NCBI GenBank assembly: GCA_009692925.1
Contig: SHYG01000003.1
Coordinates: 1-54,473, forward strand
Source of the DNA: Dehalococcoidia bacterium
GTDB taxonomy: Bacteria; Chloroflexota; Dehalococcoidia; Lucifugimonadales; UBA3495
DNA: 54,473 bases
Reading direction: 5' to 3'
The notes under the pieces are model-generated. The model was not told where the DNA came from, ran no database searches, and saw only the letters and a program-made list of their open reading frames with translations. The first letter of the stretch is position 1; every line of letters begins with the position of its first letter. The position numbers and the translations under genes were made by a program. Below are positions 48,077-54,473 of the stretch, one piece after another.

Positions 48077-48168
48077 TGGCGGAGAGGGCGGGATTCGAAC
48101 CCGCGAGAGACTTGTGAGCCCCTACACGATTTCCAGTCGTGCCCGTTCGACCACTCCGGCACCTCTCC
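48077..48168 (-). tRNA. tRNA-Ser (anticodon GGA)
   Basis: GGAGAGG/CCTCTCC acceptor stem, CACGA-CTGGAAA-TCGTG anticodon arm, long variable arm, GGTTCGAATCC, encoded CCA. Confidence 0.96.
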
Positions 48169-48300: not shown

Positions 48301-48329
48301 TTGACAAAATATATACCTGATATTAAACT
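48301..48329 (+). promoter_or_regulatory. Sigma70-type promoter of the transporter operon
   Basis: TTGACA-17-TAAACT; predicted start about 48336. Confidence 0.75.
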
Positions 48330-48337
48330 GCCTGAAT

Positions 48338-48451
48338 GTGCGCAACGCCGTCATCACGTTCCGCTCTCCGCGGTTTGCCGCCGGCTTCGTTTGAGTCCCC
48401 GCCTGCGGGGCCTGGACAGGCTGGCGGTCCCACGGTGGCGTTACCTCTTAG
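48338..48451 (+). promoter_or_regulatory. Candidate leader peptide with in-frame UGA (Sec?) and SECIS-like hairpin
   Basis: GTG-RNAVITFRSPRFAAGFV-TGA(48392-48394)-VPACGAWTGWRSHGGVTS-TAG; 28 of 35 sense codons end in G/C; stem-loop with GGAC loop 19 nt after the TGA. Confidence 0.5.
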
Positions 48452-48477
48452 CTCCCCGGTTCGTTGCCACCATTAGA

Positions 48478-48575
48478 CCTCCTGCTTTCTGCCCCACAGG
48501 CATGCCGCTGGAATGCCGCATACGGTGGTCCCGATTCGCCTTTGGGTCAGCAAAAACATTTGGGTTAGCAGGAGG
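48478..48575 (+). promoter_or_regulatory. Anti-Shine-Dalgarno / SD pair
   Basis: CCTCCTGCT (48478-48486) is perfectly complementary to AGCAGGAGG (48567-48575). Confidence 0.6.
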
Positions 48576-48583
48576 GTTCTTTA

Positions 48584-49528
48584 ATGCTTCAGATGTTTCA
48601 GAGGTTTAGTGCCCGCAGACTTGTCCTGGTGGTATTCTCCGCATTGATTTTGGCAGCAGGCATCGTCGCCTGCGGGCCCGCCGTAGCACCTACTCCCGCC
48701 GCTCCTGCGGCAACTCCGGCGCCGCCGACTCTCAAGATTGGCGGCATTCCCGACCAGAACGCCGCCACTTTGGCCCGCCGCTACGACAGCTTCGCCGCCT
48801 ACATGTCCAAGGAGCTGGGGGTGCAGGTGCAGTATGTGCCCAGCGTGGACTACGCCGCGGTGGTGACCGCCTTCACCCAGGGGGAGCTGCAACTGGCCTT
48901 CTTCGGCGGGCTCACCGGGGCCCAGGCCCGGCTGCAAAACCCCGGCGCGCTGGCCATTGTCCAGCGGGAGAACGACGCCAAGTTCCACTCCCGGTTCATC
49001 GTGCGCAGCGAGCTGCCGGTGAAGTCGTTGGAAGAGCTGAAAACCCAGGCCAAAAGCCTGACCATCACGTTCGGCAGTGAAAGCTCCACCTCCGGCCACC
49101 TGATGCCCCGCCACTTCCTAGTCCAGGCCGGCATAGACCCCGCCACCGCCTTCAAGACGGTGCCCAACTTCTCCGGCTCCCACGACCTGACCTGGCAGTT
49201 GGTGCAGAGCGGCTCCTTCGACGTGGGGGCGCTGAACGAGGATGTGTGGACGGCGGCAGTAAAGGCCGGCAAGATTGACCCGGCCAAGGTGCGTGAGTTC
49301 TACACCACTCCCGAGTATGTGGACTACCACTGGCTGGCCCACCCTGGCTTGGACAAGACCTACGGCGCCGGCTTTACCAGCAAGGCCAAGCAGGCGCTGC
49401 TGAAGCTGAACCTGCAGGAGAACAAGGAGATTCTGGGCCTGTTCGCCACCCAGAAGTTCATCGAGACCAGCAACGCCAACTACCAGCCCATCGAGCAGAT
49501 TGGCCGCAACCTGGGGATAATCAAGTAG
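48584..49528 (+). CDS. PhnD-like ABC substrate-binding lipoprotein, resembling the putative selenate-transporter subfamily
   Basis: IVACG lipobox; IPDQ, DYAAVVTAF, FGGLTG.QAR, FGSESSTSG.LMP, FSGSHD.T..LVQSG. Subfamily is recognised from memory of TIGR04553-type proteins, not searched. Confidence 0.75.
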   Translation: MLQMFQRFSARRLVLVVFSALILAAGIVACGPAVAPTPAAPAATPAPPTLKIGGIPDQNAATLARRYDSFAAYMSKELGVQVQYVPSVDYAAVVTAFTQGELQLAFFGGLTGAQARLQNPGALAIVQRENDAKFHSRFIVRSELPVKSLEELKTQAKSLTITFGSESSTSGHLMPRHFLVQAGIDPATAFKTVPNFSGSHDLTWQLVQSGSFDVGALNEDVWTAAVKAGKIDPAKVREFYTTPEYVDYHWLAHPGLDKTYGAGFTSKAKQALLKLNLQENKEILGLFATQKFIETSNANYQPIEQIGRNLGIIK

Positions 49529-50341
49529 ATGGCTGATTCTCGACACCACGCGGCAGTCGCTGCCCCGGCCGCCACTCACGTGGTGGTCAAGGATGTTGCC
49601 AAGGGCTACCCTGGGGTGCGGGCTTTGGCCCCCATCGCGTTCAGCGTGCAGCCCGGCGAGCGGTTGGCCCTGGCCGGGCCCAGCGGCAGCGGCAAGACCA
49701 CGCTGCTGTACCTGCTGGCGGGCCTGCTGCAGCCCGACGCCGGCCAGCTGTGCATTGACGGGCGTGACCTGGCGGAGATGAGGCCCGGCCGGGAGCTGGC
49801 TCGGCTGGTGGGCATGGTGCACCAGCAGTACGATCTGGTGTCCTCCCTGCCGGTGCTTCACAACGTGCTGGCCGGGCGGCTGGGCCAGTGGAGCCTGGCG
49901 GGTTCAGCCCTCTCCCTCATCTGGCCCCGGGAGCGGCATCTGGCGGAGGAGGCCCTGGCCCGGCTGGGCATCGCCGACAAGGCCAGCCAGCGCACCTCCC
50001 GCCTTTCCGGCGGTGAGCAGCAGCGGGTGGCCATCGCCCGGCTCATGCTGCAGTCGCCCCGCATCATCCTGGCCGACGAGCCGGTGTCATCCCTGGACCC
50101 CGCTCTGGCGGAGGAGATGATGCGCCTGCTGGTGGACCTCGTGGAAGGCTCCGGCAAGACCCTCATCGCCAGCCTGCACTCGCCCTATCTCATCAAGAAG
50201 TACTGCACCCGGGTCATCGGGCTGCGCCAGGGGGAGATGCAGTTCGACCTGCCCGCCGCCGACCTGACGGAGGCGGTGCTGGACCGCCTCTACGACCTGG
50301 ACCGCCGGCGTCCTGAGAACGGCGCAATACGGCAGGAGTGA
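49529..50341 (+). CDS. PhnC-like ABC ATPase
   Basis: GPSGSGKT, HNVLAGRLG, LSGGEQQRVAIAR, ADEPVSSLDP. Confidence 0.9.
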   Translation: MADSRHHAAVAAPAATHVVVKDVAKGYPGVRALAPIAFSVQPGERLALAGPSGSGKTTLLYLLAGLLQPDAGQLCIDGRDLAEMRPGRELARLVGMVHQQYDLVSSLPVLHNVLAGRLGQWSLAGSALSLIWPRERHLAEEALARLGIADKASQRTSRLSGGEQQRVAIARLMLQSPRIILADEPVSSLDPALAEEMMRLLVDLVEGSGKTLIASLHSPYLIKKYCTRVIGLRQGEMQFDLPAADLTEAVLDRLYDLDRRRPENGAIRQE

Positions 50342-50345
50342 GGCG

Positions 50346-51128
50346 CTGAAGCTATCCGATAGCCGCGGCCTGCTGACCCTGCTGCTGCTGGGGGCATTCC
50401 TCTGGAGCCTAACGGGCGTGGACTGGGGAGGCTCCCTGATTCACAGCGGCGGTGGCGGCGCCGCCCGCACCTTCTTCCTGGCCCTCTTCCCGCCAGACCT
50501 GTCCCCCGAGTTTCTCCGCATCAGCCTGGCCGCCACGTGGCCCACCCTGGCCTACGCCGTGGCGGGCATGACCGTGGCGGTGCTCATCGGCCTGCCGTTA
50601 GGCATACTGGCCTCAGGCACTGTAATTTCTGTGCCGCGCCTGCGGTGGCCGGTGGCGCTGGCATCCCGGTTCTCCCTGGGCGGGATGCGGGCCATCCATG
50701 AGTTGGTGTGGGCGGTGCTCTTCGTGGCCGCCTTTGGCCTCTCGCCCTTGGTGGCGGTGCTGGCATTGGGCATCCCCTACGGCGGCATCCTGGGGCGCAT
50801 CTACTCGGAGCTGCTCCACGACGTGCCGCCCGAGCCGCTGCGGGCGCTGCGGACCGCCGGTGCGTCGCCGGTGCGCCAGCTGCTGTACGGGCGCATCCCC
50901 CTGGCCCTGCCGGACATGGTGGGCTACACCTTCTACCGCTTCGAGTGCGCCATCCGTTCGGCGGCTATCATGAGCTTTGTGGGTATTCAGGGACTGGGGT
51001 ATCAGCTACAGTTGTCGCTGAACGACCTGCTGTTCCGGCAGGTGTGGACGCTGCTCCTGTTCATGCTGGTGCTGGTGGTGCTGGTGGACCAGTGGAGCTC
51101 CCTGGTGCGCCGGAAGCTGGCGTCCTGA
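50346..51128 (+). CDS. PhnE-like ABC permease 1, probable CTG start
   Basis: RAIHELVWA, YRFECAIRSA; frame is open upstream of GTG 50418 through a TM helix to CTG 50346, 7 nt after AGGAG. Confidence 0.85.
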   Translation: MKLSDSRGLLTLLLLGAFLWSLTGVDWGGSLIHSGGGGAARTFFLALFPPDLSPEFLRISLAATWPTLAYAVAGMTVAVLIGLPLGILASGTVISVPRLRWPVALASRFSLGGMRAIHELVWAVLFVAAFGLSPLVAVLALGIPYGGILGRIYSELLHDVPPEPLRALRTAGASPVRQLLYGRIPLALPDMVGYTFYRFECAIRSAAIMSFVGIQGLGYQLQLSLNDLLFRQVWTLLLFMLVLVVLVDQWSSLVRRKLAS

Positions 51129-52018
51129 TGGAGGCGAGGGAGAGGCCCACCCGGTCTGCCTCGGCCAGTCCCAAGCCCGGTGGGGTGGTCCGGCTCTCCA
51201 TGCTGGGACTGCTGGCGCTGGCGGCGGCCTCCTGGGGCTACCTGGTGTTCGGCGTAGACCGGGATTTCCCCAACCTGCTGGCTGCGGATACGTGGCAGGG
51301 AGCCGGGCGCTTGTTGGGCCAGATGCTTGGCAGAGACTCAACTTCTCCTCCGGCTTACACCCAGTGGGACCGGTGGCTGGAGACCGGCAAGCTGGCGTAC
51401 CAGACCCTGACCATGAGCGTGCTGGCCATCGGCCTGGCGGGCATCGGCGTGCTGGTGACCTTCCTGCCGGCGGCCCGCAACGTGAGTCACGGCGGCCTGG
51501 GCGGCGCGTCGTCTCGGCCCTGGCGGGTGCTGCATCACGTCATACGGCTGGTGTACAACCTCACCCGCGCCGTGCCCGAGCTGGTTTGGGCCATGATCAT
51601 CGTGTTCTTCCTGTCGCCGGGGTTGCTGCCCGGCGCGGTGGCCCTGGCCCTGCACAACTTCGGCATCGTGGGCAAGTTGTCGGCAGAGGTGGTGGAGAAC
51701 CTGGACCCCGCGCCTAGCCGCGCACTTCGGGCGGCCGGGGCCAGCAACACCCAGATGCTGCTGTACGGCATTCTGCCCCAGGCGTTGCCCCATTTCCTGA
51801 CCTACCTGCTCTATCGCTGGGAAGTGGTCATCCGCACCACGGTGGTGGTGGGCTTTGTGGCCGCCGGCGGCATGGGGCGGGAGTTCCGCCTGAGCCTGAG
51901 CTACTTTCACTACACGGATGTTGCCCTGCTGCTGATGTGGTACATGATTCTGGTCACCGGCGTGGACCTGCTCAGCGCGTTGCTGCGCCGCATGGCGCTC
52001 CCTCCGCCGGTGCGGTAA
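51128..52018 (+). CDS. PhnE-like ABC permease 2
   Basis: RAVPELVWA, ALALHN.G..GKL, YRWEVVIR; ATG overlaps the previous TGA. Confidence 0.88.
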   Translation: MEARERPTRSASASPKPGGVVRLSMLGLLALAAASWGYLVFGVDRDFPNLLAADTWQGAGRLLGQMLGRDSTSPPAYTQWDRWLETGKLAYQTLTMSVLAIGLAGIGVLVTFLPAARNVSHGGLGGASSRPWRVLHHVIRLVYNLTRAVPELVWAMIIVFFLSPGLLPGAVALALHNFGIVGKLSAEVVENLDPAPSRALRAAGASNTQMLLYGILPQALPHFLTYLLYRWEVVIRTTVVVGFVAAGGMGREFRLSLSYFHYTDVALLLMWYMILVTGVDLLSALLRRMALPPPVR

Positions 52019-52059: not shown

Positions 52060-53301
52060 ATGCGATGGCTCCTCCGCGGGATATTGGTGGTGTTGTTGGC
52101 CGGTCTGATACTAGCCTCCGGTGGCGGCTACCGGCCCGCCAGCCTGGACTTGCTATTGGCGCCCTACCGGTACAGCCTGCTGGCCTGGGAGCTGGAGCAT
52201 CTCCCGGAGAAGTGGCTCCACAAGCTGGACCGTGCCCTGGCCTGGTGGCAGTCGCCCACTGGCGCCGAAAAGGCGGCCTGGGCGCAGGAGTATTTCTCCC
52301 TGGCCCAGCGCGCGGATCAGGTGGAGCGTGCTCTGGATGGCGAAGGCACTTCCGGCGACCCCCTTACCCAGGAGCAACTCCGCGTGTCCCGGCAGGAGCT
52401 GGCGGACTTGCGCGAGCGGCGGGCGCGGCTGCGGGCCCTGGTGGAAGCGGCCATCGAGGCGGCCATCAGCGATGTCCTGGCCCAGGAGGGTTTGGACTGG
52501 GGCGCAGGGATTGTCATGCCGCCGGTGGATGCGGTGCTCTCCAGCTCGCCGCACGTCCTGGTGACGTCGCCCCGGGAGCGCATCCACCGGGAGTGGGCGG
52601 TGCTGCTGCGACCTGCCCTGGACGACGGCGACAAAGAGCTGGTGGAAGCGGGCGTGTTGGCGGACCGCGGGCTGTCGGCGATTGTAGAAGGCACCGGGGG
52701 TGTGGCCTCCTACCCCAGCGTGGTCTCCGACGCCTACGGGCTGCAATACGGGATGGCCACGGTGGCCCACGAGTGGGTCCACCAGTGGCTATTCTTCCGC
52801 CCGCTGGGTCAGGGCTTTGACCGCACGCCGGAGCTGACCGCCATCAACGAGACGGTGGCCACCATTGTGGGGGAGGAGATCGGCGACCGGGCCTATACCG
52901 CACTGACTGGAGAGGTGGTGGACCGGCCCGCAACCGATTCCAGATCGCCAGAACCAAGCGCAGATGCCCCCGAGGCGGATGCCTTTGACTTCAACGCCGC
53001 CATGCGGGAGACGCGCCTGGGTGCTGAGGAGCTGCTGGCAATGGGAAAGATCGACGAGGCTGAGGCGTATATGGAGCAGCGCCGCCAGTTCCTGGATGGC
53101 CAGGGGTACCCCATCCGCAAGATAAACCAGGCCTACTTTGCCTTCCACGGCTCCTACGCCACCGGCGCGGGCTCAGTCAGTCCCATCGGGCAGCAGCTAC
53201 AGGACTTGCGGCGGGACAGCGCCTCGGCGGCGGAGTTTCTGAAGGTGGTGGCCCGGTTCAGCACCTACCAAGAGTTTTTGGACTACCTGAAAGGTAGGTG
53301 A
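52060..53301 (+). CDS. Exported hypothetical protein with HEXXH motif (putative zinc peptidase)
   Basis: N-terminal hydrophobic helix; AHEWVH followed by INETVA; INQAYFAFHGSYA. Confidence 0.6.
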   Translation: MRWLLRGILVVLLAGLILASGGGYRPASLDLLLAPYRYSLLAWELEHLPEKWLHKLDRALAWWQSPTGAEKAAWAQEYFSLAQRADQVERALDGEGTSGDPLTQEQLRVSRQELADLRERRARLRALVEAAIEAAISDVLAQEGLDWGAGIVMPPVDAVLSSSPHVLVTSPRERIHREWAVLLRPALDDGDKELVEAGVLADRGLSAIVEGTGGVASYPSVVSDAYGLQYGMATVAHEWVHQWLFFRPLGQGFDRTPELTAINETVATIVGEEIGDRAYTALTGEVVDRPATDSRSPEPSADAPEADAFDFNAAMRETRLGAEELLAMGKIDEAEAYMEQRRQFLDGQGYPIRKINQAYFAFHGSYATGAGSVSPIGQQLQDLRRDSASAAEFLKVVARFSTYQEFLDYLKGR

Positions 53302-53336: not shown

Positions 53337-54328
53337 TCAGGCGCTGTGCTGTATTGTGGTTAAGCCGACTCCCAGGGCTTCCACCACTGGCGTAACGGGC
53401 GCAAGCCGCGCCCAAGGAACTCCTCTACATTGGCTTCTGTGCAGCACCGTCCTGCTACCGCCGCTAGCCTCCTCGTCTATTAACGTAGAGGGCACATCCT
53501 CCCAGTCAAACCCACGTCTGCCGAAGGCGTCTCGTTGCTCCCAAACTATGATCCTATCGTCCTCAATCTTCCAGCCGTTGGCCGCGTCCCCCTCGCTCTT
53601 GGCGTGGGTCGATACCCTCAGCAAGCTATCAAGGCGGGCCTTCACCCGGTCATACCGATTCTCGGCGTAGTCAAACCAGGTTACGGTCTGGCACCAGCGT
53701 GGCGGCGATACGTCTATGGCGCTCGAGATTATGCTGCTTAGCTCGCCTGACGACAGCCCCAGCCAATCTTCCGGTAGTCGCTCATCGTCGAGGCGATCCA
53801 TAACTGATGTCAAGTAGCGGCGATAGAGGTGTCCCGTTAGCCCACGGCGCATCTCCTGTACGCTGCCCTGCAGTCGCTGACGTAGCTCTTCGTTGTGTGG
53901 CGGCAACGCCGGCGTCGTGTAAATCATCATGCTGCGCTTTACCACCTCGTCTGGGAACGACTGGGGCTCCGCATTCATGGAGAGTATGAAACCTGGGTAT
54001 TCTGTGACGGGAGGCTGCATCTCGTCCTTGATCATATCTCTGCCATGAAGCCTGAATGCGTTGCGCCCAATGTCGTCAAACACCACCGGAAACCTTTTGT
54101 ATCCTTGTTGTAACCCACGAAGTTGAGACGTGGTAAAGCTCCTCTTTTCTACTGTGTGGGCATAGCCGAACATAGAGGTCATCAGTGTATCTGCCAGGCT
54201 GGTCTTACCACAGTTAGACTTGCCGAAAATTATCGCAAAGGAGGGATACCGGATTACATCGCTATCCTGCAACAACGCGAGAGAGCGCATGTCACAGATG
54301 AATGGCGAAAAGTATAACCAGGACATAG
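53337..54328 (-). pseudogene. C-terminal part of a P-loop NTPase protein (possible defence gene), cut by IS1182
   Basis: Walker A GKSNCGKT, Walker B VVFDD; lower GC than flanks; 5' end runs into the IS end. Confidence 0.6.
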
Positions 54329-54473
54329 GAGCTTGTCCCACAAACCCCCTTCTCGCAGGGTAGGTAAAGCAGTAAGCTCATGGAAACATGGAGCGAGGTA
54401 CGAGGGGATGGCGTACAACCTGCTGGCGGGTGACCGAGAGCAAGGGTATCTGCTGCCGCCGTCGGTGCGGGAG
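54329..54473 (+). mobile_element. IS1182-family element, left end and transposase start (runs off window)
   Basis: ATG 54408 gives MAYNLLAGDREQGYLLPPSVRE, matching the DR.Q..LLPPS..E transposase N-terminus; left boundary approximate. Confidence 0.75.

Follow-up and report, generated by a model that had tools for sequence, protein, structure and literature searches.

What is the role of a short open reading frame (ORF) with an in-frame UGA codon that lies directly in front of the genes of a putative selenium transporter? The question is raised by a locus in a 54,473-nucleotide (nt) stretch of DNA, contig SHYG01000003.1 of assembly GCA_009692925.1 from a Dehalococcoidia bacterium, which is called the window here; all coordinates are on its forward strand. 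Comparative analyses of the leader ORF and of the RNA around it suggested that the element is a selenocysteine (Sec)-sensing translational attenuator of the transporter genes. Judged from sequence comparisons, we regard this reading as plausible and as the most likely one, with about an even chance of being correct. The leader ORF, its UGA, its conservation at both the peptide and the RNA level, and the helix that sequesters the Shine-Dalgarno (SD) region of the first transporter gene are well supported.

The features of the leader region, in the order in which they are transcribed, are the following:
48301..48329, + strand: promoter-like site of the sigma-70 type, TTGACA, a 17-nt spacer and TAAACT, matching 10 of 12 consensus positions.
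48338..48451, + strand: leader ORF, GTG start, 18 codons, the UGA putatively read as Sec, 18 codons and TAG, recognised by translation and by the conservation of frame and length.
48377..48428, + strand: long hairpin of the window's own minimum free energy (MFE) fold, with the outer helix 48377-48387 with 48418-48428.
48383..48391, + strand: codons GGC TTC GTT, Gly-Phe-Val, just before the UGA; Gly-Phe-Thr in most relatives.
48392..48394, + strand: in-frame UGA, candidate Sec codon, in 38 of 38 leaders.
48403..48427, + strand: hairpin resembling a Sec insertion sequence (SECIS), stem 48403-48411 with 48419-48427 and loop CUGGACA at 48412-48418, proposed by RNAalifold.
48407..48428, + strand: region 2, candidate anti-anti-SD (GGGGC ... 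GGCUGGCGGU), pairing with 48477-48495 in the masked fold.
48434..48471, + strand: hairpin with the leader stop in its loop, 7-base-pair (bp) stem 48434-48440 with 48465-48471.
48478..48486, + strand: anti-SD CCUCCUGCU, with the helix extended over 48471-48486, seen in the pairing, the MFE fold and the relatives.
48491..48495, + strand: conserved GCCCC between the anti-SD and the second hairpin, seen in the alignments.
48499..48517, + strand: second conserved hairpin, stem GGCAU/AUGCC, loop with CCGCUGGA (CCGUUGGA in relatives).
48567..48575, + strand: SD region AGCAGGAGG of the binding-protein gene, with the ATG 8 nt downstream at 48584.

To describe the leader ORF as a gene, we compared 38 distinct leaders, merged from 49 rows of a homology set and a pattern scan. 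The pattern, by which 20 of the 38 were selected, forces the Gly, the Phe and the GGGGCYTGGA block, and the 18 rows not chosen by it form an unbiased subset. The leader of the window has 37 codons, with the UGA at 48392 and the TAG at 48449 in frame with the GTG at 48338, and encodes the peptide VRNAVITFRSPRFAAGFV-U-VPACGAWTGWRSHGGVTS. The start codon (GTG in 22 leaders, ATG in 16) was located 17 codons before the UGA in 32 of the 38, and the next in-frame stop followed 17-20 codons past the UGA in 34, compared with 4 of 38 in each of the other frames. The closing stop was TAG in 21 leaders, TAA in 15 and TGA in 2, and all three codons are therefore used. The three codons before the UGA (-3 to -1, Gly-Phe-Thr) had an entropy of about 0 at their first and second positions and of 1.0-1.5 bits at the third. 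Within the unbiased rows Gly was found in 18/18, Phe in 17/18 and Thr in 14/18, and the synonymous codons GGC/GGA/GGT, TTC/TTT and ACT/ACG/ACC were all observed. Variation that is confined to the wobble position marks the peptide itself as the target of selection. The first 13 codons were equally variable at all three positions, with only their number being kept, and codons +5 to +7 (Gly-Ala-Trp, GGGGCCUGG) were invariant even at four-fold degenerate sites, which indicated a constraint at the RNA level.

The position of the promoter suggested how the leader is translated. The TTGAC motif begins 35-37 nt before the leader start in 35 of the 38 leaders, and exactly 36 nt before it in 28, and the start codon thus lies 7-8 nt past the -10 hexamer, where transcription usually begins. 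SD-like tetramers upstream of the leader start were found in only 3 of 37 leaders. The leader is probably translated from a leaderless or nearly leaderless messenger RNA (mRNA). An ATG two bases before the GTG opens a 46-codon ORF in another frame (48336-48476, + strand), whose TAG at 48474 lies just before the anti-SD. In relatives with ATGTG, the frame of this ATG closes after 2-4 codons, and this frame is therefore probably unused.

The same patterns bear on the possibility that the ORF is a working 37-amino-acid protein of the U-x-x-x-C type, for example a selenium carrier, with the anti-SD helix acting as an unrelated damper of translation, constitutive or otherwise controlled. The in-frame UGA, the hairpin and the conserved downstream frame fit a selenoprotein gene, Cys was found at +4 in 24 of the 38 leaders, and the ORF adjoins a putative selenium transporter. 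However, the N-terminal half bears no sign of amino-acid selection, the conservation after the UGA is at the nucleotide level with wobble positions included, and the ORF overlaps the regulatory helices. Compact variants of the leader have only three codons past the UGA, and in one relative a second copy stands before a different operon (both described below). Searches of the peptide against Pfam and NCBIfam also returned no family above cut-off; the sub-threshold matches to SpoVM (16.6 bits), Gallidermin (12.9 bits) and DUF4357 (13.1 bits) were taken as chance. We regard a small selenoprotein as quite unlikely.

The next question was whether the UGA can be read as Sec. The UGA was invariant in 38/38 leaders, the matches having been selected for it. 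The genome of the window encodes SelB (309 bits, over the cut-off) and a Sec transfer RNA (tRNA-Sec; 66 bits, over the gathering score), and its selD gene (G000:C38:11798-12721, - strand) contains one in-frame TGA at the known Sec position. We found selD in 35 of 38 related genomes, with one TGA (…CAG-U-AAK…) in every match listed (loci L130-L158), and selB in all five further genomes checked, those with the compact form and those lacking the leader included. Sec decoding is thus available, and the UGA may be read as Sec. The premise of the earlier note, an upstream ORF (uORF) that looks translated and has a conserved in-frame UGA, a hairpin after it and the Sec machinery in the same genome, was borne out. 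In one relative (G004:C1:1371326-1379296) the leader and transporter are located about 6 kb from a Sec-containing selD.

The apical loop of bacterial SECIS elements lies about 16-37 nt from the UGA, as described for bSECISearch, and SelB recognises a G-U in the SECIS loop in Escherichia coli and Moorella. The leader loop 48412-48418 is at +20 to +26 from the U of the UGA. Over the 38 leaders, in an ungapped alignment, the hairpin 48403-48411/48419-48427 was 90.6% paired, compared with at most 46.6% in slid controls, and its covariation score was reached by 4 of 500 shuffles. The SECIS of the clade's selD genes is a near-perfect hairpin, AGGACC-UGGUNCA-GGUCCU. The leader shares with it an in-frame UGA and, about 20-26 nt from this UGA, a hairpin loop of 7 nt that contains UGG and is closed by C-G, and the leader loop CUGGACA resembles UGGUNCA. 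In contrast to the selD element, the leader loop is CUGGACA rather than UGGUNCA, the stem is bulged, and the host ORF has 37 codons and no sign of a protein function. Formate dehydrogenase alpha was considered as a second SECIS example and has no in-frame TGA, and a genome-wide hunt for TGA followed by CYTGGW in a hairpin loop gave 173 candidates, mostly out-of-frame TGAs in genes rich in G and C, and was abandoned. The formate-dehydrogenase-alpha-like gene (G000:C93:8465-10639, + strand) is in three consecutive pieces in different frames, and may be frameshifted or mis-assembled.

The earlier note had taken 48418-48428 as the 3' strand of the SECIS-like hairpin, as in the long hairpin of the window's own fold, and this part of the proposal was at best weakly supported. 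Counted as outer helix 48379-48386/48419-48426 and inner helix 48397-48401/48406-48410, the long hairpin had 70% of its cells paired over the 38 leaders, with 76% for the outer helix and 61% for the inner one; 102 of 500 shuffles were as good and there was no covariation signal. The conserved hairpin is 48403-48427. RNAalifold on the 38 rows proposed yet another fold of the same invariant bases, and covariation does not decide between the folds after the UGA. The segment 48419-48427 can pair with 48378-48386, with 48403-48411 or with the anti-SD.

The next element is the helix that hides the SD. As had been proposed, the anti-SD 48478-48486 (CCUCCUGCU) pairs with 48567-48575 (AGCAGGAGG) at 9 of 9 positions, all Watson-Crick. 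The unconstrained MFE fold contains this helix and extends it to 48471-48486 with 48567-48585. The folding energy of the whole leader is ordinary (z = -1.58, with 15 of 200 shuffles as stable), and whole-leader stability alone is therefore uninformative. The duplex of the anti-SD region with the SD of the window had an energy of -24.9 kcal/mol versus -17.4 +/- 2.8 kcal/mol for shuffles, of which 3 of 200 were as good. In 18 leaders, a set from which L101 (divergent, with 66 codons after the TGA) and L102 were excluded in this and the later 18-row analyses, each anti-SD paired with its own SD at a mean of -18.8 kcal/mol versus -15.7 kcal/mol for mismatched combinations, and 0 of 10000 re-pairings were as good. 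In most relatives the SD region has its pairing partner in a C/U-rich segment 20-35 nt past the leader stop, with coordinated changes in the flanking bases. Examples of co-varying anti-SD and SD pairs are GACCUCUUGCC with GGCAAGAGGUC, CCCUCUUUGCCCC with GGGGCAAGAAGGG, CUUCUGCC with GGCAGAAG, and CUUGCCCUC with GAGGGCAAG. The anti-SD is conserved across relatives and co-varies with the SD by lineage-specific compensating changes, which supports the earlier note on this point.

A conserved anti-SD:SD helix points to translational control, and this argues against transcriptional polarity, in which termination at the UGA under selenium shortage would uncouple translation and Rho would stop the transcript before the transporter, with low selenium as the OFF state. 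There is a precedent in fdhF(Sec) of Treponema primitia, for which an excerpt of PMC3892789 describes selenium-dependent, translation-coupled transcription, and past the uORF stop the sequence is rich in C and poor in G. The leader resembles that gene in that reading of the UGA as Sec would change downstream expression, and differs from it in that the UGA lies in a dedicated leader before a transporter, not within the enzyme gene, where the effect is transcriptional polarity. However, read-through adds only 18 codons and leaves about 130 nt untranslated either way, the direction is wrong for an uptake system, and no intrinsic terminator was found. Polarity is highly improbable here.

The second part of the proposed switch is an alternative partner for the anti-SD. 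According to the earlier note, 48477-48487 would pair with 48418-48428 in the ON state and enclose a hairpin around the leader stop. In the window 9 of 11 positions of this helix are paired, with one G-U and two mismatches; the stem 48434-48440 with 48465-48471 is paired at 7 of 7 positions (one G-U), and the in-frame TAG at 48449-48451 is within its loop. When 48380-48406 was kept single-stranded, the MFE fold re-paired 48478-48486 with 48419-48427 as predicted, and this masked fold extended the ON helix to GGGGC at 48407-48411 with GCCCC at 48491-48495. For the window, opening the SD and start carried an ensemble cost of 13.7 kcal/mol in the free RNA, 6.6 kcal/mol with the UGA mask and 14.2 kcal/mol with the uORF-stop mask. 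Among the relatives, region 2 paired better with its own anti-SD than with those of others (41 of 10000 re-pairings were as good), and, read by eye, GGGGC had its complement in GCCCC in about 16 of 18 leaders, whose place was taken in L088 and L089 by a compensating GAGGC:GCCUC. A hairpin of at least four pairs that encloses the stop was found in 14 of 18 relatives versus 9.7 expected from shuffles.

Averaged over the 18 leaders, opening the SD cost 13.8 kcal/mol in free RNA, 12.7 when a ribosome was placed at the UGA and 13.8 when it was placed at the stop. The switch would have to be kinetic, and we therefore modelled the nascent transcript before the SD exists. In this model the mean probability of the anti-SD:region 2 pairing over the 18 leaders was 0.27 with no ribosome, 0.42 with a ribosome at the UGA, 0.04 with a ribosome nine codons past the UGA and 0.18 with a ribosome at the stop. 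In 12 of 18 leaders the probability was higher by at least 0.2 at the UGA than nine codons on, and it was lower in none, a contrast that is partly built in, as the mask covers region 2. For the anti-anti-SD step, the masked fold of the window agreed with what had been predicted, and the support across the relatives was moderate, with 6-7 of 18 leaders for it and 4 reversed. Ribosome-dependent refolding, as suggested by these models, thus has moderate and partly conflicting support.

These observations can be assembled into a scheme for the proposed attenuator. Transcription would start at or beside the GTG at 48338, giving a leaderless mRNA, and by default the transporter SD would be locked by the anti-SD 48478-48486, with the gene OFF. 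A ribosome translating the leader would arrive at the UGA at 48392. At low selenium, when Sec-tRNA(Sec)-SelB is scarce, it would wait or terminate there, and the Gly-Phe-Thr end of the nascent peptide and the UGA-G context may slow release. The waiting ribosome would cover 48377-48405, the helices that hold 48407-48428 would melt, and the freed G-rich strand would capture the newly made anti-SD and GCCCC (48477-48495). The SD would then emerge unpaired and the transporter would be made. Where the hairpin 48403-48427 guides Sec insertion, translation would proceed for another 18 codons, across the G-rich strand, and end at the stop codon at 48449. The anti-SD would then be left free to pair with the SD, and uptake would be shut down. 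That the leader senses selenium in just this way, through UGA recoding by SelB, Sec-tRNA and a SECIS hairpin on a leaderless mRNA, turning on a high-affinity selenium importer when Sec-tRNA is short and using Gly-Phe-Thr to make the UGA a slow stop, is a tentative proposal that falls just short of an even chance. The direction, with low selenium as the ON state, we infer only.

A second conserved hairpin lies directly 3' of the anti-SD, at 48499-48517; the earlier note had described neither this hairpin nor the leaderless start nor the peptide-level conservation of Gly-Phe-Thr before the UGA. The motif of the hairpin was found in at least 28 of the 38 leaders, with a stem of 4-5 bp whose pairs vary (UA/UG/CG and AU/GU/UA) and an essentially invariant loop, CCGYUGGA. 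An alternative to the scheme above is a SelB operator, in which SelB-GTP-Sec-tRNA would bind 48403-48427, and perhaps 48499-48517, and stabilise the fold that leaves the anti-SD available for locking the SD, leader translation being secondary or merely of assistance; such an operator would be compatible with the attenuator. The two conserved hairpins share YUGGA in their loops (CUGGACA and CCGYUGGA), the wobble positions in the first hairpin are invariant, and SelB is present. There is also a precedent: in the 5' untranslated region (5'UTR) of E. coli selAB, an excerpt of PMC13449736 describes an untranslated SECIS-like hairpin 3 nt from the SD, at which bound SelB-GTP-Sec-tRNA blocks initiation. 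As proposed here, the leader is like selAB in having a SECIS-type hairpin outside a normal selenoprotein gene and in tying the Sec-tRNA/SelB status to translation of a selenium-related operon. Unlike in selAB, the first hairpin lies within the translated leader behind a UGA and about 140 nt from the SD, the second hairpin is about 50 nt from it, and a separate anti-SD does the blocking. An operator alone leaves the start, the frame, the length and the Gly-Phe-Thr selection of the leader unexplained, and hairpin 2 is unlike the SECIS of the clade's selD. We consider such an operator unlikely, and SelB binding to hairpin 2 is a guess. CsrA, the obvious candidate to bind GGA motifs in hairpin loops, was dropped when PF02599 was not found in the genome of the window (G000, 91% complete).

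To see how widely the element occurs, we searched for it around the homologues of the binding protein, which were present in 38 of 61 related genomes and, within the window's own family, in 32 of 36; the best-matching public contigs were titled Dehalococcoidia, Chloroflexota or SAR202 metagenome-assembled genomes (MAGs). Thirty loci and the window provided 31 upstream regions for comparison, with the duplicates L001, L002 and L081 removed. Iterated nhmmer searches with the core 48370-48445 found the element in 19 of the 31, all with an in-frame TGA and 16 of them with the next in-frame stop 17-20 codons later, and L102 gave a partial match without the TGA. A scan of one genome per species with the exact pattern GGNTTYRYNTGAG-N11-GGGGCYTGGA returned 32 stretches, 31 of them with a complete leader ORF and titled Chloroflexota/Dehalococcoidia/SAR202, with one 'uncultured bacterium'. 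The match in a Myxococcales MAG had no start codon and was taken as chance. With a covariance model of the core, the element was found in 59 of 121 genomes and in 19 of 27 genera of the window's family, as a single copy before the transporter except for a second copy in G002 and a weak second match in G479. In an even sample of the class, the pattern occurred in 2 of 401 genomes, both from the window's family, and the long form is therefore restricted to the family. Binding-protein homologues of other phyla (Bacillaceae, Betaproteobacteria, Stutzerimonas and others) were without the leader, and a uORF with GG.TTY...TGA was found in 3 of 80 binding-protein loci, all Chloroflexota. The element is thus widespread in one family of Chloroflexota/Dehalococcoidia (SAR202-type) MAGs.

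The second copy in the close relative G002 is on another contig (L180:1200-2841), with a promoter, a Sec-codon leader and an anti-SD-like CCUCCUGCC. In place of a transporter, it is followed by an OsmC-like gene and by an acyl-CoA dehydrogenase-like gene of the Rv1679 family. It has no CCGYUGGA hairpin, and is the sole clear extra copy among the 121 family genomes.

Variant forms of the leader were informative as to which parts are kept. L104 and L105, which are low in G and C, have a compact leader of 12 codons ending in Thr-Gly-Phe-Thr-UGA, followed by three codons and TAA, and their anti-SD is within the footprint of a ribosome at the UGA. L106, L108, L110, L101, L194 and L199 keep Gly/Ser-Phe-Thr-UGA in otherwise different leaders, and no such leader was found in the upstream regions of L003, L094, L100, L107 and L109. 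On these comparisons, a ribosome stalled at the UGA that unmasks the SD may be the feature common to the long and the compact forms.

Stalling at the UGA could also be explained if the UGA were a plain stop and the leader an arrest peptide similar to TnaC, the leader of the tna operon that senses free tryptophan and acts via Rho. Gly-Phe-Thr would then stall release in response to a small molecule, such as the transporter substrate, the stalled ribosome would open the SD, and folding or the binding of a ligand, rather than Sec insertion, would be the task of the conserved RNA past the UGA. Amino-acid selection falls exactly on the three residues before the UGA, the stop at that position is always of the UGA type (38/38), and the compact variants lack the GGGGCCUGGA hairpin yet keep Gly-Phe-Thr-UGA. 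However, in 34 of 38 leaders the frame remains open for 17-20 codons past the UGA before it closes, versus 4 of 38 in the other frames, and such a frame would be pointless if the UGA always terminated; both compact variants keep an in-frame stop three codons on, and selB was found in all genomes checked. An arrest peptide of this kind is very unlikely. The proposed attenuator is like TnaC in its short leader, in its conserved residues just before the UGA and in that the dwell time at the UGA would decide downstream expression. Unlike in TnaC, the frame continues past the UGA, a SECIS-like hairpin follows, and the output would be unmasking of an SD.

Several results weigh against the attenuator reading. 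The conservation is partly circular, as the matches came either from similarity searches or from a pattern in which GG.TTY...TGA and GGGGCYTGGA are fixed. A leader with a Cys codon (TGY for TGA), which would have proved Sec, was found neither in the 38 leaders nor in divergent upstream regions, in searches that were TGA-biased. In the hairpin 48403-48427 only 2 cells were changed on both sides, so that there are almost no compensatory changes, and the leader loop has GGA (UGGA) where the clade's selD SECIS has GGU (UGGU). On the MAFFT alignment the OFF helix counted column by column was 54.8% paired, as reached by 63 of 500 shuffles, with 68.8% at a slide of +1; this count is non-significant because the SDs are out of register in that alignment. 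The 11-pair ON helix, counted by column, was 63.1% paired (93 of 500 shuffles), and 2 of its 11 positions never pair. The first measure of the switch, the mean probability that the SD is unpaired under ribosome masks, revealed no effect, and was replaced by the opening cost because the freed SD forms a weak local hairpin. By the latter measure, a ribosome at the UGA lowered SD opening by at least 2 kcal/mol relative to free RNA in only 6 of 18 leaders, and compared with a ribosome at the stop it made opening cheaper in 7 of 18 and dearer in 4. Hairpin 2 is the most conserved 3' element, yet it has no role in the attenuator. The 'selenate' label of TIGR04553, the family of the binding protein, is itself hypothetical. 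Finally, the four sequencing runs with the stretch are DNA, two RNA-labelled rows hold 0.05 of its words, and no usable RNA run was found.

The sensing of amino-acid supply by leader-peptide attenuators is textbook knowledge. In translational attenuation of the ermC type and in transcription attenuation of the trp/his type, the position of a ribosome at a control codon chooses between exclusive pairings (1:2, 2:3 and 3:4). The element proposed here is similar to these systems in its short leader ORF, its control codon and a last pairing that hides the SD of the regulated gene. It differs from ermC, trp and his in that its control codon, a UGA, depends on SelB, Sec-tRNA and a hairpin in the mRNA, and is neither a sense codon whose ordinary tRNA is scarce nor the site of a drug stall; in addition, the leader mRNA is apparently leaderless, and the signal would be selenium status. 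To our knowledge, there is no leader-peptide attenuator for selenocysteine, and the element seems to be a novel means by which bacteria sense how much selenium is available. Full-text literature searches, which covered main texts, did not turn up any account of a leader or uORF with a Sec codon in front of a transporter. A 2026 review of the selenoproteomes of prokaryotes uses none of the terms 'uORF', 'leader' and 'attenuat'; TIGR04553, selenate and leader are absent (0 occurrences) from the Haft preprint (10.1101/2022.07.06.499078), and the only relevant mention in PMC5029168 is of an ABC ATPase near an orphan selD.

If the proposed reading is true, this would be the first case of attenuation governed by the 21st amino acid, and stop-codon recoding itself would be usable as a regulatory sensor. 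It would also provide independent genetic evidence for the TIGR04553 ATP-binding cassette (ABC) transporter as a specific selenium uptake system of prokaryotes; according to an excerpt of a 2026 review (PMC13188914), a high-affinity transport system specific for selenium has yet to be identified in these organisms. The element ties the TIGR04553 family to selenium by evidence that is independent of gene neighbourhood, and makes the question of the prokaryotic selenium transporter directly testable.

The transporter genes downstream of the leader are the following:
48584..49528, + strand: periplasmic substrate-binding protein, PhnD-like, TIGR04553 (Pfam PF12974, E = 1.2e-59; NCBIfam).
49529-50341, + strand: PhnC-like ATPase (Pfam/NCBIfam).
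Within 50418-52018, + strand: two PhnE-like permease domains, with approximate gene boundaries.

The binding protein scored 313.4 bits against the NCBIfam hidden Markov model TIGR04553, 'putative selenate ABC transporter' (cut-off 250), and fails the PhnD equivalog, with 129.9 bits against a cut-off of 261.1. A search of the leader region against Rfam 15 up to E = 10 gave no significant match; the best was a CRISPR repeat (E = 0.039, 23 bits, under the gathering score of 39), and nothing was found at E <= 0.05 in seven related loci. Directly past the transporter genes are two long ORFs, 52060-53301 (+ strand) and 53337-54341 (- strand), which have no Pfam or NCBIfam match. On the other side, a tRNA-Ser(GGA) gene (48077-48168, - strand) is located divergently upstream of the leader promoter. 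The same tRNA-like sequence lies upstream of the transporter in L094, L104 and L105, which indicates that the synteny is conserved.

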